Under the pieces are notes generated by a model. It ran no database searches. It saw only the letters and a program-made list of their open reading frames with translations, and was not told the origin of the DNA. A stretch of 64,000 nt of DNA. Source: a bacterium (GTDB taxonomy: Bacteria > Vulcanimicrobiota > Xenobia > Xenobiales > JADMJV01). Location of the stretch: assembly GCA_030149525.1 (NCBI GenBank), contig JASBRJ010000049.1:9019-73018 (forward strand), read 5' to 3'. Of the stretch, positions 21,514 through 38,316 are shown one piece after another; the first letter of the stretch is position 1, and each line of letters begins with the position of its first letter. A program made the translations under genes and the position numbers.

Positions 21514-21542
21514 AGGCCCGGCTCCGGAATCGTTGAAAATGG

Positions 21543-21800: not shown

Positions 21801-21825
21801 AATTTTCCTTCCCAAAGATCATAAC

Positions 21826-21878: not shown

Positions 21879-21916
21879 TATGTTCACATTCTTGAAACAC
21901 GGGAAGAGAGGTTCTT

Positions 21917-22318: not shown

Positions 22319-22327
22319 AATGCCGGT

Positions 22328-23611
22328 TCAGCGATTTGCGAAATAACGGATAGTGCGTAGAGCAAGAGTGAGTCCATCCTCTAAGCCATAGCGGGCCGCC
22401 AGCATAACCACATCTTCATCCTGTCCAAACCCGGCGGCGAAAGCGTTGATCTTGGTGGCCAAATAACTGCTACTCAGATCGATCTTTTGCAAAGTCCGAA
22501 CCAGGAGTGGAATTTTCCGAAGGGCTTGCTTCTGCTCATCCTTCTTGGCAGCCTCGAACCAGTTGCAGGGCTTGAGAAAGAGTTCATCACTCACCACCCA
22601 GTCCGGCTGGGAGGCTTTGAAATCTTGCCAGGCCTGATAGCAACGCCTCTCTTGCTCCGGCGTGGTGTAGAAGAGGAGATCGCCTTGAGAGGAATAGACT
22701 TCCCAGAACCTGTGGAGAATCGATTCAAGATCGGTCCCATCCGGCTCGTAAGTGATCTCGACCGCCTCGAACCATTCCGGCAAATCATCCCCTGCGAACT
22801 GACGGTGAACATGACCTATGCGAGTCAGCGTCACTCCCGGCAATCCGCCCAAAAGACTCTCCAGCTTCCAGATAACAGGCGATCTCAGCCCTCGAGTGGC
22901 GGTGAGAGAACCGAAGACAAGTTGTTCGCCCGTCGGGCGCGAGCGATACTCCTCGAGCGGAGAAAACGGCCCGAAAAGTTCGAAGGCATCGCTGCGGGAG
23001 AACGGCTGCACCAATGGCAGAATACTTTTGCCCGTCCGATACGTCACCTGTCCCCGGGTCCAAAAGTTCAGCCCGAAGGAAGCGAACGACCAACCGAGCT
23101 CCGTGAGGTGCTCCAGTTGAGAAGAGGGCTCTTTCGACCAATGCGTTTGTAGCCAGTGACCGATGAGATAGGCCCATACCTCCGTGCGACTCTCACCCTG
23201 ACCGGAAATTTTTCGCAACCGATCTCGAAGCTCGAAAATCCCAGGGCGATTCCGGTCAGGTTTGAGAGTTTGCAAGAAATTCGCCACCTCAGATATCTCC
23301 GTGTGCAGAGCATTCTTGTGAAACGTCTCGATCTCCCAAAAGTCGAGAGCGCTCCAGGTCGAAGCAAACGCCGCTTCCGCTAGAACCGGTAAGAAGAAAT
23401 CGGGCATCTGAGGAGTTCGGGCAAGTTGGGCGTGAAGCAGGCAATCCAGCCAGAGAAGGCGGCTGCGCTCTAGATCTTGGTAGCGAGCGGCCGAACCGGG
23501 CCGCCCGTCGACGATCACAACACCGTTATCCAGGCCGGGAGCCTCTCGGGCTTTCATCTCCGCCAGCATGGCCAAGCTTATTACGGCTCCTAGAGCCTGG
23601 AACACCCACAT
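22328..23611 (-). CDS. Hypothetical protein with a C-terminal degenerate MsrA domain
   Basis: WKLESLLGGLPGVTLTRIG, EAVEITYEP, RFWE, FYTTPEQ, FEAAxxDEQKQALRKIP and ATKINAF align by eye to MsrA. The GCFW motif reads PVIW. Confidence 0.7.
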   Translation of the reverse strand: MWVFQALGAVISLAMLAEMKAREAPGLDNGVVIVDGRPGSAARYQDLERSRLLWLDCLLHAQLARTPQMPDFFLPVLAEAAFASTWSALDFWEIETFHKNALHTEISEVANFLQTLKPDRNRPGIFELRDRLRKISGQGESRTEVWAYLIGHWLQTHWSKEPSSQLEHLTELGWSFASFGLNFWTRGQVTYRTGKSILPLVQPFSRSDAFELFGPFSPLEEYRSRPTGEQLVFGSLTATRGLRSPVIWKLESLLGGLPGVTLTRIGHVHRQFAGDDLPEWFEAVEITYEPDGTDLESILHRFWEVYSSQGDLLFYTTPEQERRCYQAWQDFKASQPDWVVSDELFLKPCNWFEAAKKDEQKQALRKIPLLVRTLQKIDLSSSYLATKINAFAAGFGQDEDVVMLAARYGLEDGLTLALRTIRYFANR

Positions 23612-23666
23612 ACGAAGATTGTACCACTATCAAAGGAAGTGAGGGCGTTGTTGGAAACTTCCAGAG

Positions 23667-24149
23667 ATGCAAATTTACCACAATCCGAGATGCGCTAACA
23701 GGCTGATGCAGAACTCGGACCGAGCCAGGAAATGGGCATTTTTGTCGTGCGGAATCGCAATTTTTGAGGCATATGTGGACATACGGTGAAAAAATTTCGA
23801 TTTCGTACGGCAAATAATGAACTTTTCTGGCGACGGGAGAGTTTTGCATCAGCCTGCTAAATCCCGACAGGCTCTGGCCCAACTCCAGGAGGCCGGCGTG
23901 GAACCCAAGGTCGTCGAGTACCTCAAGACACCTCCGACTCTTTCCCAACTTCAAGACATCCTGGAGGGACTCAACGGTGATTTGAGTCTCATGATTCGCG
24001 AGAAGGACTTGAAGAAAGACGGTTTAGAGCCCAGTCTGGAACTGCTGGCAGAGCAACCCAAATATTTGCAAAGACCGATCCTAATTCGGAATAAGCGGGT
24101 TTCAGTTTGTCGAACTCCGGAGGAAGTGGAAGCTTTCCTGAACTGCTAA
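23667..24149 (+). pseudogene. arsC: ArsC/Spx-family arsenate reductase interrupted by a MITE
   Basis: Removing the 158-bp insert and one CTAA copy restores MQIYHNPRCAKSRQALAQL...YLKTPP...QRPIL (106 aa). As present, the frame stops at TGA 23787-23789. Confidence 0.9.
23699..23856. mobile_element. MITE, 158 bp, 18-bp TIRs, 4-bp TSD CTAA
   Basis: CAGGCTGATGCAGAACTC ... GAGTTTTGCATCAGCCTG (one mismatch), with CTAA at 23695-23698 and 23857-23860. Confidence 0.92.
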
Positions 24150-24802
24150 AGACCGCCTCCAAAGACCTGAGTCACAACAATGATTCGACCTTCTTTTGCG
24201 TATCCAATCCCCACATGGGTGGCCTGCGGGTCCAGGATGTTTTGGCGATGACCGGGAGAATCCATCCATTCCTGCACTGTCAGCTTAGCAGCCCCTGTCG
24301 GATCGTGTCCTGTACACTGGAAAATATTCTCCGAGACCATAAGCGGATCGGCACCGGCCAGGCGGACTCTGTCGCCGGGTTGACTTCGACCCTTAACCGG
24401 TGAGGTATGGGAAAAATAGCCAAGCTTCAGCATCTCCTGTGAATGACCCTCGGCCGCTTGCTGCAGCGATCCGTGAACGGCCACGTCCTCCAAGCCCCTT
24501 CGCCTTCGATTCTCATTGGTAAGCCTCAAGACTTCCGCCTCGAAAATCTGAGCTTCGGTCAGGGTGGGAGAGGGAGCTGTGTCGGCGGGAGTGACCCGAG
24601 AATCGCCCACCTTATAGGTCTGCAGACGCACCTGACTGCTGGGGACAGTGTAGACCTCGTAGTTCCCGTTGGCGTCGGGGCTTGAAGTCACTTTCATCAT
24701 TCCGTTTTCGAAAGTCACCTTGTAGGTAACCTCGGCTAGAGTCGGAGCAGACATTGTGAGCAGACAGAGCAAGGAGAAGAGGCGGATTTTCAGGCAGTTC
24801 AT
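24146..24802 (-). CDS. CAP (SCP-like) domain secreted protein
   Basis: Signal peptide; LTNENRRRRGL, AEGHSQEM, YFSHTS, ENI, WMDSPGHRQNIL, GIG. Confidence 0.9.
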   Translation of the reverse strand: MNCLKIRLFSLLCLLTMSAPTLAEVTYKVTFENGMMKVTSSPDANGNYEVYTVPSSQVRLQTYKVGDSRVTPADTAPSPTLTEAQIFEAEVLRLTNENRRRRGLEDVAVHGSLQQAAEGHSQEMLKLGYFSHTSPVKGRSQPGDRVRLAGADPLMVSENIFQCTGHDPTGAAKLTVQEWMDSPGHRQNILDPQATHVGIGYAKEGRIIVVTQVFGGGL

Positions 24803-24856
24803 GGCAAAGTTATACCTCAATCTTTCAAATTTGTCTCTGAACCGTTGGCACAATCA

Positions 24857-26242
24857 TCAATTCCAATGAAAAACCGACACGGGCAGCACTAGCAGCACAC
24901 ACGAGATCAAGGAGAGAATAACCACCAGGGGCATACAGAACTTGAACCATCGATCATAAGGAATCCCCGCAATCTGAAGCACGCCCATACAGACTCCACT
25001 GGTGGGGATCACCATGTTGGAGATCCCGTCGCCGAACTGGAAGGCCAAAACCGCCACCTGCCGCTCCAGGCCTAGAAGATCGCTCAAAGGCGCCATCAGC
25101 GGCATGGTAAGAGCCGCCTGCCCTGATCCTGAAGGGACAAAGAAGTTGAGAAAACTCTGAAAGAAGAACATGACGATGGCCGACAAGGCGGGGGCCAGTC
25201 CGTCTGCCAATCCCGCCAGATTATTGAGAATGGTGTCGATGATGAAACCCTTTTCCGCAATGACCAGCAAGCCTCGACTGAAGCCGATTATGAGCGCCGC
25301 CACGACCACCTCCGCGGCACCTTCGGAGAACGCCTTAACGGTGTCTTCAGCTGTCAGCTTCCCAAAGATGGCCGACAGAATGCCCATCCCCACAAAAAGA
25401 CCGGCAATCTCTTTGATATACCAATCCCATACCTTCACGCCGTAGACCAGCAACACCAGTGTCAGAGCAAGAGAAACCAGGACAAAGACTCTTGAGGTTG
25501 TCATATCGGCTTGCTCGTTTAACGACTCTCCTCGGTCCCACTTGGTTTCGATACCAAAGGTGACGCTCAACCGAGGGTCTTTCTCCACTTTCAAGGCGTA
25601 ACGACAGATAAAAAAGATTCCGGCAAGAGTATAGACCACCCAACAGAACAGGCGATAGTTGAAACCACTCCCTGGCGCAAGCCCGGCGATACCCTGAGCT
25701 ATTCCCACCGTGAATGGATTGATAAATGCGCCCGCAAAACCTACGGCAGCCCCCACGAACGGTACCGCCACACCCACCACGATGTCATAGCCCAGGGCGA
25801 GAGCCATAGGAATAGTGAGCATCACGAAGACCAGCACTTCCTCGGTCATGCCAAAGGTGGCACCACCGAGAGAAAACAGAATGATGATGACTGGTAAGAT
25901 CAGCAGTTTGTGGCGAGGGCTTGCCACTCCGAAGGCGATGACTTTCTCCAGAAAGGCCTGGATGGCTCCCGTCTTCTGAACAATGCCGAACGCACCGGCC
26001 ACCAGAAAAACGAATCCGATGATATCGGCGGCAGCCTCAAAGCCTGCAATCGGGGCGGTGAGAAAATCCATGATCCCCTGACCGTTCTGTTCCACCTGAT
26101 GATAGGTGCCGGGCACAACGACCATCTTATTCTTGTACTGTTGCCGCTCAAACTCACCAGCCGGAATGATCCAGGTGAGAAGGGTGAACAGGACCATAAA
26201 GACCGTCAAAAGAGTCAGAACGTCGGGGAATTTTCTCTTCAT
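24857..26242 (-). CDS. yfcC: YfcC-family (DcuC/TRAP-like) transporter
   Basis: LTWIIPAGEFER, NPFTVGIAQGIAGL, PSGSGQA, AFQFGDG, IPTSG, GIPYDRW. Confidence 0.9.
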   Translation of the reverse strand: MKRKFPDVLTLLTVFMVLFTLLTWIIPAGEFERQQYKNKMVVVPGTYHQVEQNGQGIMDFLTAPIAGFEAAADIIGFVFLVAGAFGIVQKTGAIQAFLEKVIAFGVASPRHKLLILPVIIILFSLGGATFGMTEEVLVFVMLTIPMALALGYDIVVGVAVPFVGAAVGFAGAFINPFTVGIAQGIAGLAPGSGFNYRLFCWVVYTLAGIFFICRYALKVEKDPRLSVTFGIETKWDRGESLNEQADMTTSRVFVLVSLALTLVLLVYGVKVWDWYIKEIAGLFVGMGILSAIFGKLTAEDTVKAFSEGAAEVVVAALIIGFSRGLLVIAEKGFIIDTILNNLAGLADGLAPALSAIVMFFFQSFLNFFVPSGSGQAALTMPLMAPLSDLLGLERQVAVLAFQFGDGISNMVIPTSGVCMGVLQIAGIPYDRWFKFCMPLVVILSLISCVLLVLPVSVFHWN

Positions 26243-26278
26243 GAGCCACGGAATTAGCCGCGGCCGGGATAAACCCCG

Positions 26279-26383
26279 TTAAGCCGACTCCTCGACTTCC
26301 ACATCCGCCACAGAAATAACGGACCTTGTGGCCACCACTGCAACCAATCCCACGTCCACAAAGACTGTCTGGAAACTTTTCAT
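26279..26383 (-). CDS. Putative 34-aa Val-rich small protein (below the ORF-track cutoff)
   Basis: AGGAGAGAGGTG RBS, then ATG 26383: MKSFQTVFVDVGLVAVVATRSVISVADVEVEESA, TAA at 26279-26281. Confidence 0.4.
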   Translation of the reverse strand: MKSFQTVFVDVGLVAVVATRSVISVADVEVEESA

Positions 26384-26474
26384 AGAGACACCTCTCTCCT
26401 ATCACAGTATCGGTGTCCGTCAAGAGACGATAAAGGAGGGAAAATCCCCCAATCAGATGGGATTTCGCCCATAG

Positions 26475-26499
26475 AAAAAGCGGACCCAAGCGAGCCCGC
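26475..26499 (-). terminator. Rho-independent terminator of the Gly/Cys-rich peptide gene
   Basis: On the - strand, GCGGGCTC-GCTT-GGGTCCGC followed by TTTTT. Confidence 0.7.
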
Positions 26500-26523
26500 C
26501 TCTTGTTCAATATCGTTAGGAGA

Positions 26524-26772
26524 TTAGAATCCCACGGACTTTGCTCGCTGACAACAACGGCCACCACAACCGGAACAACCGCCGCCTGAGCATCCACCGC
26601 TCTGACATTGACCGCCCTGACAGCCGGAACACCCTCCGCCGCCTCCCTGTCCTCCGGAAAGCAAGCGCTTGATCAGTTCGATGATACTGCCGCCACCAGC
26701 GCCGTTCGCTTTGCGTCCGCCAAAAAGTTGCCCGATTCCTCCGGCTGCTCCGTTGAGTAATTGTCCTATCAT
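26524..26772 (-). CDS. 82-aa Gly/Cys-rich peptide (8 Cys)
   Basis: AAGGAG RBS before ATG 26772. Sequence MIGQLLNGAAGG...LLSGGQGGGGGCSGCQGGQCQSGGCSGGGCSGCGGRCCQRAKSVGF, with its own terminator. Confidence 0.75.
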   Translation of the reverse strand: MIGQLLNGAAGGIGQLFGGRKANGAGGGSIIELIKRLLSGGQGGGGGCSGCQGGQCQSGGCSGGGCSGCGGRCCQRAKSVGF

Positions 26773-27073
26773 AGTTGCACACTCCTTTGTGTTTCCACGG
26801 CCCTGCCTGAACCGGCGCGGCCGTTCTTGATTTCGTGTAACTCCATTGTAAGAGGCAACCGCAGTCCAAAGAGGGCCGATTCTGTTGAAAAAATATGAAC
26901 TTCTATTTCCAACCTTGAACCGGATATTGCCAGAACGTAAAGTCCGGTCTTGAAACCTTCTCGATACGACGATTGTCACAAAGTGTCATGCGGCGCTAGT
27001 ACAGATCCCCTAAGCTCACATTGTCCCACAAAAGCTGGAATCGACTCACCGGTCGCTCCGGGTTTTCGGACAA

Positions 27074-27111
27074 CGGTGCGTCGCGCACCGCGCGGTGCGT
27101 CGCGCACCGCG
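27074..27111. repeat. Perfect tandem duplication of a 19-bp hairpin unit
   Basis: CGGTGCGTCGCGCACCGCG occurs twice. Each unit folds as CGGTGCG-TCG-CGCACCG. Confidence 0.9.
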
Positions 27112-27151
27112 CGATTCATCGAAAAACCAAATCAACAACGGAGGCAATAAC

Positions 27152-27517
27152 GTGTTTCGTTATTCCATGATACTTCTCACAACTATGTTGGCCATTTCCA
27201 CGGCCGCTTCAGCTCAAATCACCTTTACCATCGGTGGCGGCAATAACAATTGTGGCCAGCGCCCCTACTACACCAACAACGGATACGGTGTCCCCCCGGG
27301 GCACTACTACTGCAACGCCCATCAAAGCTATTGTAACCACCCTGCCAACAACGGCAACCGATACGGAAACCGTTACGGCTACGGCGACGATCACCGTCAT
27401 CGCAACAACAAACGACGATTCCGCAACAGAGGTCGAAACAACTGGCGCAACGGTAACGGCAACTGTCCACCCGGTCACTACTACTGTAACGCTCATCGAA
27501 GCTACTGCAGTCACTAG
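27152..27517 (+). CDS. Secreted N/G/R-rich protein with two PPGHYYCNAHxSYCxH repeats
   Basis: GGAGG RBS before GTG 27152; Sec signal ending ASA-Q; duplicated 16-aa His/Cys motif. Confidence 0.8.
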   Translation: MFRYSMILLTTMLAISTAASAQITFTIGGGNNNCGQRPYYTNNGYGVPPGHYYCNAHQSYCNHPANNGNRYGNRYGYGDDHRHRNNKRRFRNRGRNNWRNGNGNCPPGHYYCNAHRSYCSH

Positions 27518-27518
27518 T

Positions 27519-27558
27519 GAGTTTGTCGGCTTGGACGGGAGGCCAAGTCGGTAAACTC
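27519..27558. terminator. 16-bp stem hairpin immediately after the stop codon
   Basis: GAGTTTGTCGGCTTGG / CCAAGTCGGTAAACTC pair with G-U wobbles. There is no T-tract. Confidence 0.35.
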
Positions 27559-27604
27559 CATAAACTCAGGAGAGAGATTTCGAAGTGAGGAGTTCCAGGG
27601 CGGG

Positions 27605-29245
27605 GTGAAACGTTTCACATTGATAGCGGTCGACCCGGAAGGCACGAGACGAGAATGGCCTCTGGAGAGACCTGCTTATATCGTGGGCCGGGAACCTCAA
27701 ACCGCTGACGGTTCAGGCATCCCTGTTCCCGGTGATCGCCATCTCTCCCGACAGCACTTCTCTCTCCAGGTCAGTCCCAAGAAGGTCGTTGTAGAACGCT
27801 CCCCCAGCGGTCGGAACCCACTCTTTTTTAACGGGGAACAGGTCGACCGTTTCTCCCTGGAGCCGGGACAAGTTTTCTATACCGGAAAGACTCAGTTCGG
27901 AATTGTTCTAAGCCAAGGCGTCGCCACTACCACCCGCTACACGTTAGCCAGAAACGCCAAGGAAGAAGCCCGTCTTCGCCGTTTGGAAGACTGCTTCAGT
28001 GCCGTGCTCGACTTACTCCGCGCTCTCAGAGAGCAGTCTCAGGTGGCGGCCTGGCAGGTCGCCTTCCCGGTGGTTCGCTCCATGCTGCCCGAGGTCGAGC
28101 AGGTCGCCTTCCTCCAAGTCCATCGAGACTCGTCGGTGAACAGAGTCATCGATCAGGATCCGGTTGAGACGCAACTCCAGGTCGACCCCGAACTTGTGGC
28201 ACAAGCTCTTCAAACTCGCCAAACTGTGACGGCGGTCTCAGAGGACTACGACCTCACCACCCCATCTCAAGAAACTCTCAACGTCCGCTATAAGTGGTCG
28301 GTGGCAACACCCGTGCACGGCTTGGAACAGGCCACCTTTGTTCTCTGGGTGTCCGGAACCGGCGCTCTCAATAAAGAGACTCTGGAAGAACGTGCCACTC
28401 TGGTCGATTTAGTGGCCGAGTTGGTTGGCCATCACATCGTAGTACGCCAGGGGAGTGAGTACTCCAGCTTGCTGGGTGTCTTCGGTCACCATGTGGGCAC
28501 GCTCTTCAAGACCTCCGGCGCTCTTCAACTCTGGTCCAACGCCGACCCGGACTCGGAGATCAAGAGCGTTCTCAACCGCTTGCTCCCTATCTGGGGCATC
28601 TCTCAGGCCATCTCGCTCCACAAGAAACGTGGAGAGAAGGCGGAGAAAGCCCTCTTAGAGAGCTGGATCAAAGAACCGGTCGTAGAACCGCAAGCGCTCA
28701 CTCGGGCGCTGAGTTCCATCGTTTCTCATGTCTACTTCTCTCCTCAGGATGAACCGTTTCTGAGTTGGAAGCTCAACGGAGAAGAGATTTCACGCTCCCC
28801 AGGGCTCATATCTCTGCCTCCTTTAGACGACGTCCCTCAGCTTTTTGACAAAACACTGGCCCTGACCATCGGTTTACTCGAAATGCTGAACAACGTGAGA
28901 AAATACCCGTCCAACCGCGGAAGCGGCCGAGAAGACCGCCTTGATTTGGGCGAGCTTGAGGCGCAGGAAAGGGAGGTTCTCGTCACAGTCACGGTGGACG
29001 AAAAAGAAGCTGCCGTGGAAGTGATTCAACCTGTGGTCACCGCCTCCGGTGGACAGATCCCCAAATCCCGCAGTCTGGAGAGAATTCGAGCTTTAGAGCA
29101 AAGTCTTCTGGGTGCCATTGTGGGCACGGAGGCGGAGACGGTGTGCGGAACGACCAGTTCGGAGTATGTGGTTCGGATTCGCCACCGCTGGGTTTACCGA
29201 TACGGACAACTGTTGAAAGACTGGAGAGATCACTTCGATGCGTAA
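27605..29245 (+). CDS. FHA + GAF-like + degenerate histidine kinase-like protein
   Basis: FHA (IVGR, LSRQH, GRNPLFFNG); FGHHVGTLF H-box-like; LLEMLNNVRKY N-box. No DxGxG or GxGL boxes. Confidence 0.75.
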   Translation: MKRFTLIAVDPEGTRREWPLERPAYIVGREPQTADGSGIPVPGDRHLSRQHFSLQVSPKKVVVERSPSGRNPLFFNGEQVDRFSLEPGQVFYTGKTQFGIVLSQGVATTTRYTLARNAKEEARLRRLEDCFSAVLDLLRALREQSQVAAWQVAFPVVRSMLPEVEQVAFLQVHRDSSVNRVIDQDPVETQLQVDPELVAQALQTRQTVTAVSEDYDLTTPSQETLNVRYKWSVATPVHGLEQATFVLWVSGTGALNKETLEERATLVDLVAELVGHHIVVRQGSEYSSLLGVFGHHVGTLFKTSGALQLWSNADPDSEIKSVLNRLLPIWGISQAISLHKKRGEKAEKALLESWIKEPVVEPQALTRALSSIVSHVYFSPQDEPFLSWKLNGEEISRSPGLISLPPLDDVPQLFDKTLALTIGLLEMLNNVRKYPSNRGSGREDRLDLGELEAQEREVLVTVTVDEKEAAVEVIQPVVTASGGQIPKSRSLERIRALEQSLLGAIVGTEAETVCGTTSSEYVVRIRHRWVYRYGQLLKDWRDHFDA

Positions 29246-30458
29246 TCTGCGCTTAATGTTGGTGGACGACAACCCCGTCACGGAGCTGGAAACGGTTTTT
29301 TTGGAGTTGCAACCGGTTCCGTACGACGAGAATGAATTCGATCCGTCACTGGGAACCTGGGCTCAACATCTGAAGCTTTGGAGCGACGGGCTCTTCCCCG
29401 CCAACGATCCCGACCTGGTGCTGGTGGATTGCCGTTTCGAAGAGGACAATAAGTACGCCCCCACCTCGCCCAACCTCAACGGCTTCGACCCGAGAGGTCT
29501 TATGCACGGGGCCATCTTCGTTTCTCGCTTATTCGGGCGTGACCGATTCCACCCGTTTGGCTTTTCCGTCTACAGCATGGACGCCTCGGCTTTTCATCAA
29601 GATCCGTATGCCCAAACCTTCATGGGCTTTTTGCTGGCCATGCGGGACTCGACTCTTGCCCCCGGAGAGAAAGGAACCATACGTGGGGCTAGAGCCCGAG
29701 AGCTGGCCCAGGTTTGCGGCGACGTTCTGGCCCAAACCGTCAAGCAGACGCCGGCCACAGCCTGGGGTCCGGCTCTGGAGATGTATCGCCAGAGGCTTCT
29801 AGAAGTGGCCGATCTGCAGGCCATCGTGGTGGAAGGCCAGAGCTTTCTCCAACTCACCGACACACTCCAACGCCAAGATCTCGAGGCCCTCAACACAGGA
29901 GTGGGGCTGACCTGGCGGCGATTCAACGGGGAAACCGACACGGTTGATGCCCGCTCTCTTTTCGCGGATCATCTCGAAGGCGACAAATGGACCGAAGAAA
30001 CGACCAAAGTGGCGCTTCCATGGCTTGAAAGGCTCCTGGTTTTGGGTGATTATCTGGCCGAAGCGGTGGACTACTCCCGAACCATCATCGTGGAAGGCAA
30101 GGAACCCGAGGAATCGAGTATCATTCGCGGCCGGGATATTCACGGGAAGAAATTGACCCGATTCTTTCACGCCTGTCTGGGAGTGATCGGTTGGTATGAA
30201 AATAGGGTCCGGGCCGACATTTCCCTGACAAGTAGCGCCATTATTCTTGAGCTCGGTCTTTCCGACAAACAGATCAACAGATATTTCAAGCCGCTTTTGA
30301 GCCTGCCCTGGGGTCGCGTGGTGGACAAACTGGACGAGGGCCTACGAGACGGCGTGTGGCCGTTGCCGGGTCAGTGGGAGCTTCACACGGTTCTCAAGGA
30401 CTGGTGCAAAAGGGTGCGCGGGGAAGACTGTCAACTGGCGGGTCCCTGGGAGCGATGA
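29238..30458 (+). CDS. Atypical receiver-domain protein with a C-terminal HTH
   Basis: LMLVDDNP, DLVLVD, FSVYS; C-terminal ELGLSDKQINRYFK resembles an AraC-type HTH. Overlaps both neighbours. Confidence 0.65.
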   Translation: MRNLRLMLVDDNPVTELETVFLELQPVPYDENEFDPSLGTWAQHLKLWSDGLFPANDPDLVLVDCRFEEDNKYAPTSPNLNGFDPRGLMHGAIFVSRLFGRDRFHPFGFSVYSMDASAFHQDPYAQTFMGFLLAMRDSTLAPGEKGTIRGARARELAQVCGDVLAQTVKQTPATAWGPALEMYRQRLLEVADLQAIVVEGQSFLQLTDTLQRQDLEALNTGVGLTWRRFNGETDTVDARSLFADHLEGDKWTEETTKVALPWLERLLVLGDYLAEAVDYSRTIIVEGKEPEESSIIRGRDIHGKKLTRFFHACLGVIGWYENRVRADISLTSSAIILELGLSDKQINRYFKPLLSLPWGRVVDKLDEGLRDGVWPLPGQWELHTVLKDWCKRVRGEDCQLAGPWER

Positions 30459-33268
30459 GAGACGACCAGGCGGTTCCTGAAACCATCGGTGTCTCCATGG
30501 ACACCAGGGAATCGTTGCGCCTGGCTTCCCAGAGTCTTACTCTCATCGAACTCCCCGACTACAAGCTCGACCGAGAGTTGGGGCGCGGAAGCTTCGGTAC
30601 CGTATGGTCGGCCACTCGAATCAAGACCGGTCAGCAAGTGGCCATCAAGATCGTGGAGAACGGGGCCCAACTGAATTGGGACTTTTTTCGCCGCGAACTG
30701 GGCTTTTTGAGAGAACTGGAGGAACACCCCTATACTCTCACCTTGCTCGACGCCCAGCTCGATCACGACCCGCCGTTCATCGTCATGCCGCTGGCCGATG
30801 GCGGCTCCTTGGAAGAAGCTTCCAGAGAAGAGATGCCCAGTGTGGAGCAGGTGGAAAAGTGGATGCGTCAGATGGCCGAGGGGCTCGTTTTTATCCATCG
30901 AAAGGGTGTCATTCACTGCGACTTCAAACCCTCCAACGTCCTACTCTCATCGGACAAGAATATTCGGATCGCCGATCTGGGCCAGGCCCGACGCACAGGC
31001 CACGGCCAGGCGTTGGGAACCATCGGGTTCATGGCACCGGAGCAGTGCCTGGAGGAGAGTAAAACCACCCCCTCCGTGAGCTGGGACGTCCATGGGTTCG
31101 GGGCCACAGCCTACTGGCTTCTCACCGGAAAGATTCCCCGTCTGGCGAATCTCCAAGAGCCTACCCTGACGGCCTATATCGAAGTCTTCGAAAAAGGTGG
31201 TGAACTGGTCCCGGTTCGAGAGCTCAACCCGAAAGTCGACAAAGAGTTAGCTGCTATCGTGGAAGGCTGTCTGCAGGTCGACCCCAATAAACGAGTTCTC
31301 AACATGGACGCCGTTCTAGAAGATCTGGAAAGGCGGAAGAATAAGGAGCCCCTCAACTGCAAACGCCCATGGAAACTCAGCTATATCCTAGCCATGGCTC
31401 TGCAACGACGGACCGTTCAAGCCGTGCTTCTCATGGTTCTTTTGGCTCTCGTCGCCTCCGTCTACGGCTGGCATCAACGTAACGAGAATCTTTATCAATC
31501 TCACCTGGTGGGCGGATTCCATGCCCAGGAATCGGGTCGACTGGAGGAAGCCTACTTAGAATGGCTGGAAGCGTTGAGCTACCGACCGAATAGCCTTCCT
31601 TTGAAAGAAAGATTGCACTTCATGCAGTTAGACTTCGTCCTCCCCCATCAAGCCAAGGTCACCGACATGAGACTCTTCGACGAGGGCTCTCGCCTTTTGA
31701 CCAGCAGTGCCGATGGAGAGCTTGCCGCCTGGCAACTTGAGACGGGCGATAAGATCTTTTCCCTCAAGCACCCGGATCAGATCAGCGCCCTTGCCGTGAA
31801 TCCCGACGAAACCTTGATGGCCACAGCTTCCTGGGATGGTTTCGCCCGCATTTTCGATGTCAAGACTCAGACCTTGAAGGCTAAACTGGCCCACTCAACC
31901 GACGGCTTCAAAGCGACCGTTGAGGAATTACTCTTTTGCGGTCAGGGGCGGTATCTCGCCACCGCCGATATTTATGGCTATCTGAGAGTGTGGACAACCG
32001 AAGGCGAAAAGCGACAACTAGCCGGCTTGCCGGAGAGCCCGGAATTCGAGCAAGTCCTGGCAGCCCATCCCACAAAACCTTGGCTTGCCGCCCTTTCCGA
32101 CCTCGATCAGATCGCCTTATGGGATCTCGATGAGGGGAAAATGCTCGGGTTGGGATACAAGCACCGGGATCTCGTCAACGAGCTACAATTTAGTGCCGAC
32201 GGTCGCTTTTTGGTTTCGGCCTCCGACGACACCACCGCCGTGGTCTGGGATTTGGAAAAGGGTCAGGTCGTCAGAGAACTCGATCATGACAGCAAGGTGA
32301 TCACTCTCCTGATGCTGGATTCACAACGTCTGGCCGCCGGTTGTGAAGACGGCACCGTGGTCATTTGGAACCTTCAGGAAAAGACACCTGTCCACCGCCT
32401 CTATCATCGACGGCCCGTTCGCTCTCTGGATCTGGATAAGCAGGGTCAACTTCTGGCGGTGGGCACCGGAGAAACAGAGATCTTATGGTCGGACACCGAA
32501 GCCAACGGAACCGTCAACGTCTGGAACGTGGAGGGTGGATATCGTCTGGGCGACCCCTGGCCCCACGATGGTCCTATTGAAAAGGTTCTTTTCAGTCCGC
32601 AAGACTCTCTCGTATTGAGCGCCTCGGGTAGTGCTCGTCAGAACACCGCAGTCCATCCCGGCTCGGTTCGAGCCTGGCGCTTCTTTCTCCCAACAGAGGA
32701 CAAAGAACTCATAGCCAAGCGGATCGTACCCCCGGCAACAGAAGTTGTGACTCTGGCTAACGGAGTGAAAATCAGCCACGGAGAAAAAGTCGAAATCAAT
32801 CAGTCGGACACATTTTCCCCCGCCAATCTCATCGCCACAGCCTCCCAAGACCGAACTGTCAGACTGTGGGACACCACCGATGGAGGAACGGCCCTGGAAC
32901 CTCTCCTTCTTGCCGGTTCGGCCGAAGCGGTGAAGTTCAGTCCCAACGGGAACGTTCTGGCTACCGCCTCCTGGAACTCTCAGTTCGACAATTCGGAAGT
33001 TCGTTTGTGGGAAGTAGAGAACGGTTACCCCATTACCCCTCCCCTGTCTTGTCCCGGGAGAGTCGTGAGCTTAGAGTTCTCCTCCGATGGTCGCACTCTC
33101 ACGGCCGGCACGGAAAAGGCCAACTACAGTTGGCAACTCACGGAAGCCAACGATCAGAACTGGAAAGACCTTTTAAGGAGGAAACTCCACTCCCAACTGG
33201 ATAAACGGGGTTCAGTGGTCTCCATTCCGGAAATGTCACAAACCGTCATGACTCAGAAAGTGCCTTGA
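30455..33268 (+). CDS. Ser/Thr protein kinase - TM - WD40 repeat protein
   Basis: LGRGSFGTV, VAIK, HCDFKPSN, DLG, APE, DV; hydrophobic segment; multiple WD repeats. ATGA coupling at 30455. Confidence 0.92.
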   Translation: MRDDQAVPETIGVSMDTRESLRLASQSLTLIELPDYKLDRELGRGSFGTVWSATRIKTGQQVAIKIVENGAQLNWDFFRRELGFLRELEEHPYTLTLLDAQLDHDPPFIVMPLADGGSLEEASREEMPSVEQVEKWMRQMAEGLVFIHRKGVIHCDFKPSNVLLSSDKNIRIADLGQARRTGHGQALGTIGFMAPEQCLEESKTTPSVSWDVHGFGATAYWLLTGKIPRLANLQEPTLTAYIEVFEKGGELVPVRELNPKVDKELAAIVEGCLQVDPNKRVLNMDAVLEDLERRKNKEPLNCKRPWKLSYILAMALQRRTVQAVLLMVLLALVASVYGWHQRNENLYQSHLVGGFHAQESGRLEEAYLEWLEALSYRPNSLPLKERLHFMQLDFVLPHQAKVTDMRLFDEGSRLLTSSADGELAAWQLETGDKIFSLKHPDQISALAVNPDETLMATASWDGFARIFDVKTQTLKAKLAHSTDGFKATVEELLFCGQGRYLATADIYGYLRVWTTEGEKRQLAGLPESPEFEQVLAAHPTKPWLAALSDLDQIALWDLDEGKMLGLGYKHRDLVNELQFSADGRFLVSASDDTTAVVWDLEKGQVVRELDHDSKVITLLMLDSQRLAAGCEDGTVVIWNLQEKTPVHRLYHRRPVRSLDLDKQGQLLAVGTGETEILWSDTEANGTVNVWNVEGGYRLGDPWPHDGPIEKVLFSPQDSLVLSASGSARQNTAVHPGSVRAWRFFLPTEDKELIAKRIVPPATEVVTLANGVKISHGEKVEINQSDTFSPANLIATASQDRTVRLWDTTDGGTALEPLLLAGSAEAVKFSPNGNVLATASWNSQFDNSEVRLWEVENGYPITPPLSCPGRVVSLEFSSDGRTLTAGTEKANYSWQLTEANDQNWKDLLRRKLHSQLDKRGSVVSIPEMSQTVMTQKVP

Positions 33269-33293
33269 GTTATACTGCGAACAGGAGAAAGAT

Positions 33294-33563
33294 ATGAATG
33301 CACTTCTAGCCACCATAACCGCTCTTTCCCTCTTCGGGTCAGCACCCCAAGCCCCCGAGGCTGGTTGCCCGCAAGGTCATGATCACAGTCATCGGCACCA
33401 GATTGTGGTGAGCGACTCCTATATGGCACGCGCTGCCAGCTACCGAGCCGTCTGCTCTCGGGGCGACCTCAACAGCGTCTTCCCCAACCGAGGAGCCGCA
33501 CTCAAAGCTGCCGCCGATCACCAACGCTCTACCGGACATCGCACCAGCGTGCAAAAGCAGTGA
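33294..33563 (+). CDS. Small secreted His-rich protein
   Basis: Signal-like N-terminus, CPQGHDHSHRH, and a C...HxxxTGH C-terminus. Confidence 0.65.
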   Translation: MNALLATITALSLFGSAPQAPEAGCPQGHDHSHRHQIVVSDSYMARAASYRAVCSRGDLNSVFPNRGAALKAAADHQRSTGHRTSVQKQ

Positions 33564-33614
33564 GACAAGTTTAGCCCCACCAAAGCTAGGGGTGCCTGTG
33601 CCTGCTTCGAGGAT

Positions 33615-36056
33615 TTAGTGTCGGCGAACCTGGAGCGTGAGCAGGCTTGCCTGCCCAACGTCGTACTTGCGCGTTTGTCCCGAACACCAAAGATGAAACT
33701 GGTCCATGTAGTTACGGCTGCCCGGATGTCCCGATTGTCCGGTAGGCAAGACGGAACGATATTCTTGAGGGTCGGTCATTTCCACCACTTGACGGAAAGA
33801 CGGGCACCAGGCGTTGGCCTCAAAGGGTAGAGCCGGATTCACGATGGTTTGGAAAACTGTATCTGCGTCTCCTCCTGCCGACCCCGTGGGGCTGTTGAGG
33901 AGCATTGCCAGCAGGGGCTGACTTCCCAGGGCGTGCTTGAACTGGATGCGGTGTAACTTACCCCACTCCCAGTATTTGGGATTGCGACCGTAAGCCTTGG
34001 AGAGTTGATTGAAGGCCTCTCCCAGGTGTTCTTCCAGAATCTCGGCACGATCTCTCAGACTCGGGACCAGTTGCTGAAGCCTGGTGTAGGCGGCGTCATT
34101 CTCAAAAAGCTGGAGAACCCAGACCGTGTATCGTCCGCCATGTCCTCCCAGAGTGCTGAACGGGTTTCTACTACCACCCAGCAGACTGCTCCCCAAACGC
34201 TCCCCCAGGACGGTGTGGGCAACTTCTTTTGCGACCCCGAGGAGAGCCACCTGATAGAGAGCCATACCGCCACTTTCAGGATGTCCGCTTCCATCCCACT
34301 CCGAAAGCCAGATCTTTCCCTTTTCCGCGTCTTCTCGCGAAAACTTGTGGTGGGCACACAGCCGACCAAATCGGAGCCCCGTAGCGCAGTGTACATCCAC
34401 CTGCATGGAGACAAAATCTTCCACTTCGAACTTCGGCTGAGAAAGGAGAAGCTCTTCTATCCTTTCCGCTCTGGTGGAACTCATCCAATCCCAGGTGAGA
34501 TGGTAGGGGTATTCTGGACCCACCACGGGGTTGTTGGCCGTAACGATATAGCCACAGGCTGGATTGTCTGCCTGGGGAAGCTCTTCAAACGGTATGACGC
34601 CGTCCCATTCATACTCACCGTTCCAACCAGGGACCGGAGTAAGACCCGTCCCCTTCTTCCGCATGGGAACCTGACCGGCCATGATGTAGCCGATATTGCC
34701 GTCCGCGTCGGCGAAGACAAAGTTGGAAGAGGGAGCCTGCCATGTGCGAAGCGCTTCCTTGAATTGCGAACAGTTCGTGGCAGAATTCATTTGGTAAAGA
34801 GTCTGTACCGGGTGAGAGGGCTCGAAGTTCATCCAGCGCAGGGCGAGCCCCAGGCTTTTTGAGCGAAACAAGATGGGTCCGTGCCGGGTGCACTCAACCT
34901 CCTCCACATGATCCTCTGCCCCTCGTACAACGATACGCTCTCTGCGAACCGTAACTCTCTCCCAACCGTCTTCCGTCTCGTAAAGGGCTGGGTCATCGGG
35001 AGAAAACCGCTCCATGTAGAGGTCCTGAGTGTCGGCATAGGAGTTCGTGACTCCCCAACCCACCTTGGGGGAGCTACCGATGACAATGAAAGGCACACCG
35101 GGGAAAGAGGCCCCTCTCACGTCCAGTTCGGGCGAGACCAGGCGACTCTCATACCAGATACTGGGGACCCGCCCTACTAGATGAGGATCACTTGCCAACA
35201 AAGGCTTACCGGAACGTGTTCGACTTCCCGAAACCACCCAGGCGTTGCTACCACCGGGAAGACCACTGTTAGGAAGAAATCCCCGGGCCTCTTGGAAAAG
35301 CTCTCGAAGCCCGTCCAGAACCAGTTTGCTGGACTCCCCGGGGGGGACCGTACAGGCTCCCTCCCGCTGGTAAAGGTGGAGAAGCTCAGCCACCTCCGGA
35401 CTGACCTTTTCCAACATCTCGCCTCGAGTGAGTTCTTGCTCCCAATTGGCACACAGATCCATGGACATCACCTGAATCCAGGCCAAGGTGTCTTCCGGTG
35501 TCCACGGTTGGGGAGAAAACTTGAGAAGTTGGAACTCTACGGGCAAAACCTTCAGGGAGTTAATACCGGCGTTCACTCCAGCGCAGAAAGCGTCCAGATG
35601 CTCTCTCTCCTTCTCGGTGAGAGCCTCAAGATCCGAACGTGCCGCCGTTCGCAGACCCAGCTTACGGAGAAAGATATCGGCCCTCAGAGCTTCCTTGCCC
35701 ACGATCTCCGCCAATCGTCCCTCACCCAGTCGACGATTGAGTTCCATCTGCCATAATCGATCTTGGGCCTGAGCGAACCCTTGACCGAAGAGAACGTCGA
35801 CCAGAGAAGACCCTTCTATGGTCGGCACGCCGTAGTCGTCGCGACGGATGGTCACCTGACTGTGAATTCCATCGACCGCAACGGTTCCTCTCCGTCTGGG
35901 CAAGGAGCGTCTTAGCCAGAGACGCAAGACTAACCAGAACATAAGCCCCAGAAAGATCAGTCCGGCCATAACTTGTAGCACAGGGTGATTGACGTACCAA
36001 TCTAATTCGAGGAGTCGAAAGAAACCATCCCTGAGGAGAAAGGCCGTAATGCTCAT
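33615..36056 (-). CDS. Penicillin acylase family (S45 Ntn-hydrolase)
   Basis: RDDYGVPTI, AQDRLWQM, GGSNAWVV nucleophile, DPHL, TANN, GQSGHPGS; N-terminal TM. Confidence 0.95.
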   Translation of the reverse strand: MSITAFLLRDGFFRLLELDWYVNHPVLQVMAGLIFLGLMFWLVLRLWLRRSLPRRRGTVAVDGIHSQVTIRRDDYGVPTIEGSSLVDVLFGQGFAQAQDRLWQMELNRRLGEGRLAEIVGKEALRADIFLRKLGLRTAARSDLEALTEKEREHLDAFCAGVNAGINSLKVLPVEFQLLKFSPQPWTPEDTLAWIQVMSMDLCANWEQELTRGEMLEKVSPEVAELLHLYQREGACTVPPGESSKLVLDGLRELFQEARGFLPNSGLPGGSNAWVVSGSRTRSGKPLLASDPHLVGRVPSIWYESRLVSPELDVRGASFPGVPFIVIGSSPKVGWGVTNSYADTQDLYMERFSPDDPALYETEDGWERVTVRRERIVVRGAEDHVEEVECTRHGPILFRSKSLGLALRWMNFEPSHPVQTLYQMNSATNCSQFKEALRTWQAPSSNFVFADADGNIGYIMAGQVPMRKKGTGLTPVPGWNGEYEWDGVIPFEELPQADNPACGYIVTANNPVVGPEYPYHLTWDWMSSTRAERIEELLLSQPKFEVEDFVSMQVDVHCATGLRFGRLCAHHKFSREDAEKGKIWLSEWDGSGHPESGGMALYQVALLGVAKEVAHTVLGERLGSSLLGGSRNPFSTLGGHGGRYTVWVLQLFENDAAYTRLQQLVPSLRDRAEILEEHLGEAFNQLSKAYGRNPKYWEWGKLHRIQFKHALGSQPLLAMLLNSPTGSAGGDADTVFQTIVNPALPFEANAWCPSFRQVVEMTDPQEYRSVLPTGQSGHPGSRNYMDQFHLWCSGQTRKYDVGQASLLTLQVRRH

Positions 36057-36106
36057 GACCGCAAGTTTGGGGAGGTACCGGTCGGGGCCTGCCGCAATTT
36101 CAAGCT

Positions 36107-36754
36107 ATGGAAGAAACCTTGCACGAAGCCTGGGAGAGTAACGCTCTAGAATGGACGAGAGCGGTTCGTGAGAATGTCATCCCCAGCCGAAATCGAGTGA
36201 CCAACGCCGCTATTCTTGAGGCGATCAAGAGGTGCCGGGGAGAGTGTGTCTTGGACCTCGGCTGCGGGGAGGGCTGGCTATGTCGAGAACTCCTTCGGCT
36301 GGGCTGGAAGACCTGGGGAGTGGACTCGTCGCCAACTCTCATAAAGCTTGCCGAAGAGAACGGCCCCGGCCGCTATCACTGCGGCAGCTACCTGGAACTG
36401 GACACACTTTTTCAAGCGAACTCCTTTGATCTGGTGGTGGCAAACTTTTCCCTGCTGGGCGAGCAATCTGCCGAGACCGCCCTGACAAAGGCTCGGGCGC
36501 TTCTCAAACCGGAAGGAGTCTTCCTGATACAAACTCTCAACCCTAAAACACTCAACCACACTGGATGGCAAACGGAAACCTGGGAGAGCTTGGGGACGTT
36601 ACGATGCTCACCCAGCCCTTGGTACTCGAGGACCCTGCAAGGCTGGACCGAGTTGTTCGACTCCTGTCAGTGGAAGATGGAGGAAGCTCTCTGGCCCAGG
36701 CACCCGGCGGACCCCGAGCCAAGCTCCGTCATCTTTAGACTGAGCGTAAGTTGA
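36107..36754 (+). CDS. Class I SAM-dependent methyltransferase
   Basis: VLDLGCGEG, GVDSS, FDLVVANF. Confidence 0.9.
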   Translation: MEETLHEAWESNALEWTRAVRENVIPSRNRVTNAAILEAIKRCRGECVLDLGCGEGWLCRELLRLGWKTWGVDSSPTLIKLAEENGPGRYHCGSYLELDTLFQANSFDLVVANFSLLGEQSAETALTKARALLKPEGVFLIQTLNPKTLNHTGWQTETWESLGTLRCSPSPWYSRTLQGWTELFDSCQWKMEEALWPRHPADPEPSSVIFRLSVS

Positions 36755-37244
36755 AGAGCATCCCGCTCTTTTGGTCTTTATCCAGGTCATCAAGATTGTC
36801 CAGGATGACGGCTGAGGAGGAACAGACTCCTCGAAAGAAACCCACTAGATTCTCCTCGGCCCGCTCGAAATCGTCGGACTCACCGGCCAGGATAGCCTCT
36901 ACCCACTCCACTCCCTGGAACGCCATCTGAATCGCCTTATCCAATTGCCGGAAATACTTGGCGAATTTTTCACTCAGTGCCGGAGACAGTCGTTCGGTGA
37001 AGAGAGACTCCTTTAACTGCCACTTTTGCACGAATTGCTCCAATTGCTCTACGAATCCATAGAACAACCCTTCAAACTCCTCAACATCCATCTCGTCCTC
37101 AGCCAGCATGTCGAGAGCGGAGAGGAGTTGACTCACATGATTGATTCCCACAACCGGAGGACGGCTTTCATGCACGAAACCACACTCGGGACACTCCAGC
37201 GGAGGCCCGCCTTCCAAGTCGGTTCGACAGATGAGGCAAATCAC
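36735..37244 (-). CDS. Zn-ribbon hypothetical protein
   Basis: CLIC...CPECG followed by an acidic helical region. GTGA coupling with the upstream small gene. Confidence 0.7.
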   Translation of the reverse strand: MICLICRTDLEGGPPLECPECGFVHESRPPVVGINHVSQLLSALDMLAEDEMDVEEFEGLFYGFVEQLEQFVQKWQLKESLFTERLSPALSEKFAKYFRQLDKAIQMAFQGVEWVEAILAGESDDFERAEENLVGFFRGVCSSSAVILDNLDDLDKDQKSGMLFNLRSV

Positions 37245-37450
37245 AGGCCGCGCACCGTCAGCCCGAAGATATCCACCAGAAGATCCCGACACACCTCGCG
37301 AATTTGGTCGGGAGACTCAAGCTTCTGCCTCTCCTCCGAAGTGCTGCCCCAAAAATTTCCGTTCATACCCAAAAGACTGTCGAGGTCGTCCATCAGGGTC
37401 CTGATCTTTTCGGTTCTGTCCAGATGAGATACATCTATAGGCTGGCTCAT
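37241..37450 (-). CDS. Small hypothetical protein (69 aa)
   Basis: MSQPIDVSHLDRTEKIR...; translationally coupled to the next gene. Confidence 0.6.
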   Translation of the reverse strand: MSQPIDVSHLDRTEKIRTLMDDLDSLLGMNGNFWGSTSEERQKLESPDQIREVCRDLLVDIFGLTVRGL

Positions 37451-37514
37451 TGACCTAGCCTTCGTTGAGAACACTCATTCCCCTCGGCTCAAAGCCCGGT
37501 AAGGCGTAGAAATG

Positions 37515-37535
37515 AAAAAAGCAGGCGAGCCTGCT
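37515..37535 (-). terminator. Rho-independent terminator
   Basis: On the - strand, AGCAGG-CTCG-CCTGCT followed by a T-run. Confidence 0.7.
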
Positions 37536-37560
37536 GTTTCTCGAGACATGCTAGCGGGGA

Positions 37561-38250: not shown

Positions 38251-38316
38251 TGCGATCTCCTGCATGTTTTGGTATTGCCTTTAGAATAGCGCACAGATGT
38301 TAAAAACATGTGAATT

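Follow-up and report, generated by a model that had tools for sequence, protein, structure and literature searches.

An operon in Eremiobacterota joining an FHA-bearing, histidine-kinase-like protein and its receiver-like partner to a receptor Ser/Thr kinase

In mycobacteria, the PknH-EmbR and PknB-GarA pairs each comprise a membrane receptor kinase that signals to a cytoplasmic FHA protein controlling transcription or metabolism. Propeller-bearing Ser/Thr kinases are also known in bacteria, among them PknD of Mycobacterium tuberculosis and WD40 kinases such as PkwA. Among histidine kinase (HK) relatives, EspA carries an N-terminal FHA domain and DivL is without a phosphorylatable His. EspA of Myxococcus xanthus is an HK-type protein that is functionally coupled to the nearby-encoded Hanks kinases PktA5 and PktB8 (PMC4320627). 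ChpT is an HK-like phosphotransferase that has the HK architecture with a lid-less Bergerat domain, and it neither binds ATP nor autophosphorylates (PMC3433190). More generally, pseudo-HKs and pseudo-receivers have two-component folds that are missing one or more catalytic features and still take part in signalling (PMC12189002; 10.1101/2025.06.23.661182). Here we describe an operon that combines elements of these systems, located at positions 27605-33268 and continuing into a fourth gene that ends at 33563, within a window of 64,000 nucleotides (contig JASBRJ010000049.1, positions 9,019 to 73,018 of the forward strand; all coordinates below are those of the window unless a relative's locus is named). 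Its host is a marine bacterium of the Eremiobacterota (Vulcanimicrobiota), a phylum with almost no cultured members.

Three open reading frames (ORFs) on the plus strand fill positions 27605-33268, namely gene 1 (27605-29245, 546 aa, GTG start), gene 2 (29238-30458, 406 aa) and gene 3 (30455-33268, 937 aa from its ATG). Gene 1 is preceded by a Shine-Dalgarno-like GAGGAG and overlaps gene 2 by 8 bp, and the stop codon of gene 2 shares an ATGA with the start codon of gene 3. The ORFs therefore bear out the translational coupling of three genes through 8-bp and ATGA overlaps, which the original prediction, made from the letters of the DNA alone, had proposed. The evidence presented here supports an architecture in which an FHA/HK-like protein is combined with a partner resembling a receiver and with a receptor Ser/Thr kinase. 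We consider the best explanation to be that the receptor Ser/Thr kinase has gained control, through the FHA domain, over an ancient two-component-like pair, in what would be a four-gene signalling operon, and we assign this reading a probability of roughly 0.55.

The protein encoded by gene 1 has no transmembrane (TM) segment and is laid out as FHA domain, helix, GAF-like domain and HK-like transmitter. In an AlphaFold2 (AF2) model built from 54 homologues, with a predicted local distance difference test (pLDDT) score of 81.4, an FHA sandwich (residues 1-102) is followed by a long helix (108-143), the GAF-like domain (149-253), a helical region (257-354) and an alpha/beta domain (362-546). The FHA part (27605-27910) of the model superposes on dozens of solved FHA domains, including 3gqs, 3po8 and GarA, with a template modelling score of about 0.8, and it has the phosphothreonine (pThr)-binding residues G28-R29, S48-R49-Q50-H51 and N70, of which R29, S48 and R49 are near-invariant across the family. 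The window's own protein scores just below the Pfam cut-offs (31.5 versus 33.2 bits for Yop-YscD_cpl, PF16697; 19 versus 20.7 for FHA, PF00498), and within the family Yop-YscD_cpl is matched by 46 of 54 members and FHA by 38 of 54. This near-threshold FHA match is the sole library signal of gene 1, for which NCBIfam and PADLOC returned nothing. By its fold and by its pThr-binding Arg, Ser, His and Asn, the N-terminus of gene 1 is an FHA domain. The FHA domains of GarA and FhaA are among its best structural matches, which provides a link to the mycobacterial systems. Unlike in EmbR or GarA, the FHA domain of gene 1 is fused to a GAF-like domain and an HK-like transmitter instead of a DNA-binding or enzyme-inhibiting module, and the putative DNA-binding protein is here a separate partner, gene 2.

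The GAF-like domain (28049-28363) was recognized from the AF2 secondary structure and from Foldseek, which matches it to the GAF modules of PDE2A/PDE5A and of phytochromes; Pfam finds nothing in this part, either in this protein or in its family. The DHp-like helical region that follows (28373-28666) is modelled as helices with pLDDT values of 57-71 and contains an H-box-like segment, LLGVFGHHVGTLFKTSG, with the motif FGHH (H295/H296). His295 (codon 28487-28489) lies within these predicted helices and is invariant family-wide, including in 28 diverse sequences, so that gene 1 would possess a conserved candidate phospho-acceptor His on a helical region in front of a catalytic-like domain, as HKs do. 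The CA-like alpha/beta domain (28688-29242), defined by the AF2 topology and by family invariants, provides a further HK feature, an N-box (GLLEMLNNVRKY) with its Glu and Asn on the central helix of a Bergerat-type domain: the motif LEMLNNVRKY lies on helix 422-433, and E426 and N430 (codon 28892-28894) are both invariant. The segment corresponding to the ATP lid is only about 10 residues long; strands 457-464 and 469-478, the latter with Q475-P476 at the G1-equivalent position, are followed by a helix (489-501) that starts at S488-R-S490. Across 28 diverse members (21-56% identity), H295, G423, E426, N430 and W529 of this C-terminal module are invariant, and G298, G331, W354, S488, E498 and T508 nearly so. 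The retained N-box Glu and Asn argue for some Mg or nucleotide function, as far as a pattern of conservation can.

When the whole model was compared with the Protein Data Bank (PDB), the top Foldseek matches were full-length sensor HKs over 490-820 aligned columns, with E values from 3e-7 to 5e-5 (Brucella LOV-HK 6ph4 at 3e-7, the Pseudomonas bacteriophytochrome kinase 9eut and VicK 4i5s), although these matches may in part reflect the GAF/PAS portions, as aligned ranges are absent from the output. The proposed kinase-like fold of gene 1 is thus drawn from the predicted structure and the motifs, not from sequence homology. Since a profile match, the G1 and G2 boxes and the ATP lid all fail, we do not class gene 1 as a histidine kinase or as a HisKA/HATPase_c member, and describe it as a protein that works like, or is derived from, such proteins. 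The FHA domain with its pThr-binding residues, the GAF-like middle part and the combination of an H-box-like GHH with an N-box in a protein without G1 and G2 had all been read from the sequence by the original prediction, and they stand: the motifs are invariant in the family, and DxGxG or GxGxG occurs in none of its members.

The lid-less architecture modelled for gene 1 would be consistent with that of ChpT of Caulobacter and Spo0B of Bacillus, dimeric histidine phosphotransferases in which a His-bearing helical hairpin, joined to a lid-less Bergerat domain that does not bind ATP, takes its phosphate from a receiver. Unlike these proteins, to which sequence homology is not detectable, gene 1 keeps the invariant N-box Glu and Asn, its sensor domains are of the FHA and GAF-like types, a hybrid kinase acting upstream of it is not evident, and its partner is a Lys-less receiver-like domain. 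It also differs from DivL in that it keeps an invariant His. Under current definitions, gene 1 without G1 and G2 would be a pseudo-HK and the Lys-less gene 2 a pseudo-receiver; known members of both groups are, however, recognized by the HisKA, HATPase_c or PF00072 profiles, and the products of genes 1 and 2 are not.

Gene 2 encodes the cytoplasmic partner and always follows gene 1. Its 58 homologues include none that is annotated, and none has a Pfam annotation; NCBIfam likewise returned nothing. The N-terminal domain (residues 1-137; 29238-29648), which is the part kept in distant relatives, has conserved D10/D11, D64 (codon 29427-29429) and S113. In hhalign comparisons with six well-known receivers (their sequences, like those of EnvZ and HK853 used below, were entered by hand), this domain reached a probability of 49%, or 58% when remote members were added, with E of about 1e-4. 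The alignment places LRLMLVDD of gene 2 on the DD of beta1 in CheY (D12/D13) and PDLVLVDCRFE on D57 of beta3. With D10/D11 and D64 aligned in this way, and D11 and D64 invariant even in the remote partners, gene 2 appears to have the acidic pocket of a receiver. S113 follows a predicted strand (108-112) and is conserved, and the hhalign alignment ends short of it; among the three remote loci described below it is kept in L018 and L019, while the L020 fragment stops before that position. Further residues are invariant in the remote partners besides D11 and D64, namely D59, C65, F67, D70 and D84-P-R-G-L. BLASTP against the partner from Ca. Elarobacter gives 30% identity over residues 2-135 only, and in all remote partners conservation (30-33% identity) is confined to the N-terminal domain (residues 1-135), the remainder being different. 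A word-index search with this domain found no relatives beyond the known family.

The C-terminal part of gene 2 may contain a single helix-turn-helix (HTH) of the AraC/MarA type at residues 306-371 (30153-30350; ...ELGLSDKQINRYFKPLL...), where the AF2 model has helices 306-325, 332-338, 343-354 and 358-371. Residues 315-362 (ELGLSDKQINRYFKPLL) align by hhalign with the first HTH of MarA/SoxS/Rob at P = 0.006 and a probability of 6%, and HTH_18 is matched by one of 51 family members (E = 0.025). A second HTH was not seen in gene 2, and it does not match the AraC/XylS profiles (PF12833/PF00165), so that an AraC-like identity is only hinted at. Judging from its motifs and alignments, gene 2 has at most a receiver-like domain that is heavily remodelled and devoid of the Lys, with a helical region behind it in which one HTH of the AraC type may lie. 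As a profile match, the Lys and a (beta-alpha)5 model all fail, we class it neither as Response_reg nor as HTH_AraC, and see in it a protein that functions in the manner of these families or descends from them. Of the earlier description of gene 2 as a receiver with DD, D and S, no obvious conserved Lys and an AraC-like HTH, the motifs are present and conserved, the receiver identity is weak, with 49-58% by hhalign and no Response_reg or Foldseek match, and the HTH has gained slight confirmation from the alignment and the lone HTH_18 match.

Gene 3 encodes a Hanks Ser/Thr kinase followed by a TM helix and a WD40 beta-propeller (Pkinase E = 4e-45, WD40 E = 1e-41). The kinase domain (residues 36-285; 30560-31309), delimited by Pfam Pkinase (PF00069) and by its motifs, has GRGSFG at 43, K65, HCD at 154-156, DLG at 174-176 and APE at 194-196, and it is a non-RD kinase in which the Cys of HCD replaces Arg. 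Its catalytic motifs appear intact and place it with the Hanks-type Ser/Thr kinases. A single TM helix is predicted at residues 320-339 (31412-31471; Kyte-Doolittle maximum of 2.1 over 19 residues), and the WD40 beta-propeller region (residues ~390-930; 31622-33244) is matched by multiple WD40 and beta-propeller Pfam models. Because the flank of the TM helix on the N-terminal, kinase side is rich in Lys and Arg, the positive-inside rule suggests that the kinase is probably cytoplasmic and the WD40 region extracytoplasmic. An apparently active Hanks kinase with a TM helix and WD40 repeats, as first proposed for this gene, is thus what the motifs and domain matches indicate. Like PknD and PkwA, gene 3 links a Hanks kinase domain through a TM helix to a beta-propeller at the C-terminus; unlike them, it is non-RD (HCD) and shares an operon with the gene 1-gene 2 pair and a small secreted His-rich protein. 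The locus also resembles EspA with PktA5/PktB8 in that an HK-type protein is paired with a Hanks-type Ser/Thr kinase. EspA, however, is an active hybrid HK of the canonical type, complete with standard CA domain and receiver, whereas here the transmitter of gene 1 has no ATP lid, the receiver-like partner is a protein of its own, and translational coupling within one operon ties both to a kinase that is a TM-WD40 receptor.

To follow these genes across genomes, loci were gathered through homologues of gene 1 and through an independent scan of species-representative genomes with a gene 2 profile, and were analysed with hidden Markov models (HMMs) in a script. Gene 1 has 57 relatives, and all those with a named source come from metagenome-assembled genomes (MAGs) of Eremiobacterota/Vulcanimicrobiota. 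The order gene 1-gene 2-gene 3 was found in 13 distinct loci (the window, L001, L002/L016, L003, L008-L015 and L017) with gene 1 identities of 43-95%, and the flanking genes differ among the three of these that were inspected (L001-L003). A lack of co-conservation of the trio, which by its own terms would have refuted the original prediction, was therefore not seen, as the trio holds together down to 43% identity in gene 1. Four loci have the pair only: L004, where gene 1 has no FHA domain, L005, where it has one, L018 and L019; in L007 and L020 the contig ends before the kinase position can be judged. Altogether, the C-terminal module of gene 1 and the N-terminal domain of gene 2 are adjacent in 19/19 loci, and no protein in which the two are fused was found among all collected sequences.

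The remote relatives extend this picture. Their neighbourhoods were covered in L018 (Ca. Elarobacter) and in the metagenome loci L019 and L020, a metagenome scan for remote relatives having yielded two loci in all; at 21-33% identity, they differ in the N-terminus of gene 1 and the C-terminus of gene 2, and no kinase is adjacent in L018 or L019. An exhaustive profile search with the C-terminal module of gene 1 retrieved 48 representative clusters among 1.84 billion proteins, and ten remote gene 1-like proteins that were scanned contain no Pfam domain. The conserved unit is a variable N-terminus with a transmitter-like module, followed by a receiver-like domain with a variable C-terminus, which, as far as sequences reveal it, is the modular logic of two-component systems. 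H295, E426 and N430 of gene 1 and D11 and D64 of gene 2 are invariant even in relatives (21-36% identity) that are without an FHA domain or an adjacent kinase. At the core lies a transmitter-like/receiver-like pair family, so far without annotation, that is rare and older than its link to the kinase. Because the five residues are invariant where FHA domain and kinase are missing, His/Asp-centred chemistry, or at least these residues, would be ancestral, and the kinase an added input. For the same reason, the idea that Ser/Thr phosphorylation read by the FHA domain replaces His autophosphorylation, with which the original prediction explained the operon, finds no support: its wiring holds, and its replacement does not.

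The FHA domain and the kinase tend to occur together. A kinase is adjacent in 11/12 informative FHA-bearing loci versus 0/3 FHA-less loci (L004, L018 and L019), a count that is descriptive given that the loci are phylogenetically related. In a tree of the C-terminal module of gene 1, the remote clade is cleanly separate, and the trio loci, L004/L005 and L007 form a polytomy with long branches. A single gain of FHA domain and kinase is possible.

Several observations concern the surroundings of the relatives. In Ca. Elarobacter (L018, 615-7019), the 778-aa gene 1-like gene shares 20 bp with the end of an ABC-transporter set (substrate-binding protein, permease and ATPase) that is itself preceded by a B12-binding radical-SAM gene, which suggests that the pair in this lineage regulates or responds to an ABC transporter. 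L019 is flanked by housekeeping genes, namely a bactofilin, pyridoxal phosphate (PLP) enzymes and an ABC transporter ATPase. Around the pair in L004 (1381-16616) and L005 (4652-10945) lie large CHAT-TPR proteins, a caspase-like Peptidase_C14, trypsin-like proteases, thioredoxins and a WD40-like protein. CHAT-TPR/caspase-like neighbourhoods are typical of described conflict or apoptosis-like systems. Three loci (L008, L011 and L017) come from MAGs titled 'uncultured Burkholderiales bacterium' and carry the otherwise Eremiobacterota-specific cluster with 59-78% identity in gene 2; these labels are probably wrong. In several loci, a second, small stand-alone Hanks kinase (~295-405 aa) is encoded within a few kb of the trio (L002 15378-16346, L012 7418-8317 and L013 12531-13475, all on the minus strand; L003 5150-6394 and L017 2556-3797, on the plus strand), and such a kinase was not seen at positions 20000-40000 of the window.

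On the basis of these data, a flow of signal through the operon can be proposed. The ancient core would comprise, in gene 1, the C-terminal His-bearing helical region with a Bergerat-type domain that would have kept its N-box and lost the lid and G1/G2, and, in gene 2, an N-terminal receiver-like domain, remodelled and without its Lys, ahead of an output region that varies and that in the clade of the window is possibly one AraC-type HTH. In the window's clade, the transmitter would have gained an N-terminal FHA and a GAF-like domain, and the pair would have been joined to a receptor-type Ser/Thr kinase. The outward WD40 propeller would sense an external cue, to which the small secreted His-rich protein of gene 4 may contribute, and the kinase of gene 3 would then autophosphorylate on Thr. 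The FHA domain of gene 1 would dock on this pThr, or on a pThr put by the kinase on gene 1 or gene 2, and docking would alter how the transmitter is poised towards gene 2, with His295 and Asp64 at the centre of the switch, so that gene 2 would alter transcription. We infer all biochemical steps of this flow, including the phosphorylation of His295 and its donor, for which an atypical ATP site, a ChpT-like relay or no donor at all are the options. Canonical ATP binding is unlikely because gene 1 has neither G1, G2 nor lid; there would be room for an atypical nucleotide site because the N-box Glu and Asn are invariant and a conserved Ser-rich segment (S488, S490) opens the helix where G2 would lie.

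A considerable number of results weigh against placing the pair among two-component proteins or under the kinase. For gene 1, a cut-off as lenient as E <= 10 yields no match to HisKA or HATPase_c, whether in the window's own protein or among 54 family members, its alignments retrieve no HK when used as profiles against the PDB, and hhalign of the C-terminal module against EnvZ/HK853 aligns the N-box alone, at a non-significant probability of 0.2%. No aligned family member has the G1 (DxGxG) box, the G2 (GxGxG) box or the ATP lid, the acidic residue that usually follows a phospho-His was not found after His295, and the possible share of GAF/PAS parts in the Foldseek ranking counts here as well. 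For gene 2, Response_reg (PF00072) matches 0/51 family members at E <= 10, and a sequence-profile search of the PDB, one of three run with alignments of the pair, finds no relevant match. Its AF2 model is confident (pLDDT 87.7, predicted template modelling score 0.75), and Foldseek finds for it no PDB match better than E = 0.5, with the best response regulator at rank 43 (E = 3.4). The model has about four strands in residues 1-137 and no clear (beta-alpha)5 topology, no Lys is invariant or near-invariant in residues 1-140, and a beta5 is not predicted. An HTH was not found by Foldseek on this model, and the family shows no convincing Pfam HTH. As for the kinase link, L005 bears an FHA domain but has no adjacent kinase, and the polytomy in the tree of the gene 1 module does not establish a single gain of the kinase. 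Finally, RNA runs from samples whose DNA contains the locus hold no transcripts of the operon.

These points leave room for other explanations. The pair could be a dead scaffold of pseudo-HK and pseudo-receiver without any His/Asp phosphorylation, in which the kinase marks one or both of the partners, the FHA domain recognizes the mark, and Ser/Thr phosphorylation alone drives gene 2. This would fit a family in which no member has G1/G2 boxes or an ATP lid, the receiver Lys is absent and FHA domain and kinase are co-conserved, and there are precedents in pseudo-HKs such as DivL and in pseudo-receivers controlled by Ser/Thr phosphorylation such as GlnR (PMC12189002; 10.1101/2025.06.23.661182). 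We nevertheless consider it unlikely, as the invariance of His295, E426, N430, D11 and D64 in FHA-less, kinase-less relatives at 21-36% identity is hard to explain if these residues are vestigial, and the pair plainly functions without the kinase in FHA-less lineages. Since none of the homology links reaches significance in sequence comparisons, the likeness to two-component systems could also be superficial. The C-terminal module of gene 1 and gene 2 would then form a new complex (e.g., enzyme-regulator or sensor-effector) whose conserved residues serve other chemistry, with the FHA/GAF domains and the kinase as regulatory add-ons. The lack of profile-level homology to HK, receiver or HTH families, a gene 2 model without a structural neighbour in the PDB, invariants in gene 2 that are foreign to receivers (C65, F67, D70 and D84-P-R-G-L) and the tiny size of the family (48 representatives in 1.84 billion proteins) all speak for this view. 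It would leave unexplained why full-length HKs rank top in the Foldseek search with gene 1, why the His is borne by a long stretch of helices that leads straight into an alpha/beta domain whose conserved helix has an N-box-like GL.E...N(A/V).(K/R)Y motif, why hhalign lines up exactly the DD and D positions of receivers, and why the modular sensor/transmitter plus receiver/output pattern fits a two-component system, and we therefore regard it as rather improbable.

An anti-phage or conflict system, with the kinase-WD40 and FHA proteins as sensor and switch for an effector, appears very improbable. The kinase domain of gene 3 scores on PADLOC kinase models (mad6 and PD-T4-6), and CHAT, TPR and caspase-like genes surround the pair in L004 and L005, which have the pair only; but the PADLOC matches are generic and confined to the kinase domain, there is no nuclease, NTPase or other effector domain, and the neighbours are ordinary metabolic or transport genes in the window, L001, L002, L018 and L019. 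A defence-system reading was set aside, as gene 3 has only these generic PADLOC matches and genes 1 and 2 match nothing there. We thus return to an ancient two-component-like pair under receptor-kinase control as the preferred reading. In a bolder form, which we hold to be tentative and somewhat doubtful, the C-terminal module of gene 1 and the N-terminal domain of gene 2 would represent an unrecognized, Eremiobacterota-restricted His-Asp branch that passes phosphoryl groups by way of a non-canonical nucleotide site or donor, and that is gated in one clade by a receptor kinase through an FHA domain. Its transmitter would have shed the ATP lid and the G1/G2 boxes, and its receiver the Lys together with part of the (beta-alpha)5 fold. 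If this were true, the branch would be a direct physical junction of the two great bacterial phospho-signalling systems.

The operon appears to be a variant of bacterial signalling wiring and not a wholly new type of system; what is new is the constant adjacency of the pair in all loci, the co-occurrence of FHA domain and kinase, and the co-conserved fourth gene. A testable role for two hypothetical proteins without a Pfam, NCBIfam or PDB relative would annotate a conserved operon of the Eremiobacterota. The pair family also provides a natural experiment in which HK and receiver features have been eroded (no lid, G boxes or Lys) with the His, N-box and Asp invariant, and it thus bears on the current discussion of pseudo-HKs and pseudo-receivers. 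The addition of FHA domain and kinase in one clade would be a case of Ser/Thr-kinase input grafted onto a two-component-like core, for which there are few examples (EspA/PktA5). As the products of genes 1 and 2 are predicted to be soluble, the four proteins should be tractable for heterologous expression.

Gene 4 (33294-33563, plus strand, 89 aa) lies directly after gene 3 and has a good ribosome-binding site (RBS), AGGAGA. Its product appears to start with a signal peptide and contains a His-rich stretch (GHDHSHRH) as well as the conserved motif AVCSRGDLN...TGH; it does not match Pfam. Homologues occupy the same position in L001 (13671-13934; 52% identity) and L002 (13797-14066; 34% identity), and HMMs detect gene 4 3' of the kinase in 10/13 trio loci. 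The His cluster after the signal peptide is of the HxHxH type, and C54, H76 and H82 are invariant; on this pattern, the protein may bind metal in the periplasm.

The DNA of the locus is nearly identical to a locus present in many marine metagenomes. The flanking genes in the window are ordinary and lie on the minus strand, with a DcuC-type transporter and a CAP-domain protein upstream and a penicillin amidase downstream. Operator-like repeated sites were sought upstream of gene 1, where only a small repetitive ORF and a tandem palindrome were found, neither of them attributable to gene 2. The small ORF (27152-27517, plus strand) ends 87 bp before gene 1; it has an RBS (GGAGG), and its product appears to begin with a signal peptide (MILLTTMLAISTAASA). 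No counterpart was called upstream of gene 1 in L001 or L002. Asn, Gly, Tyr and Cys are abundant in the mature part of the small protein, which includes two copies of PPGHYYCNAH(Q/R)SYC(N/S)H, encoded by a 48-nt direct repeat with the copies 174 nt apart, and the product may be a secreted peptide. The palindrome lies in the intergenic region 5' of this ORF (27074-27111), where a GC-rich palindromic unit of 19 bp, CGGTGCGTCGCGCACCGCG, is perfectly duplicated in tandem to give two copies, which could be an operator or a terminator-like element.

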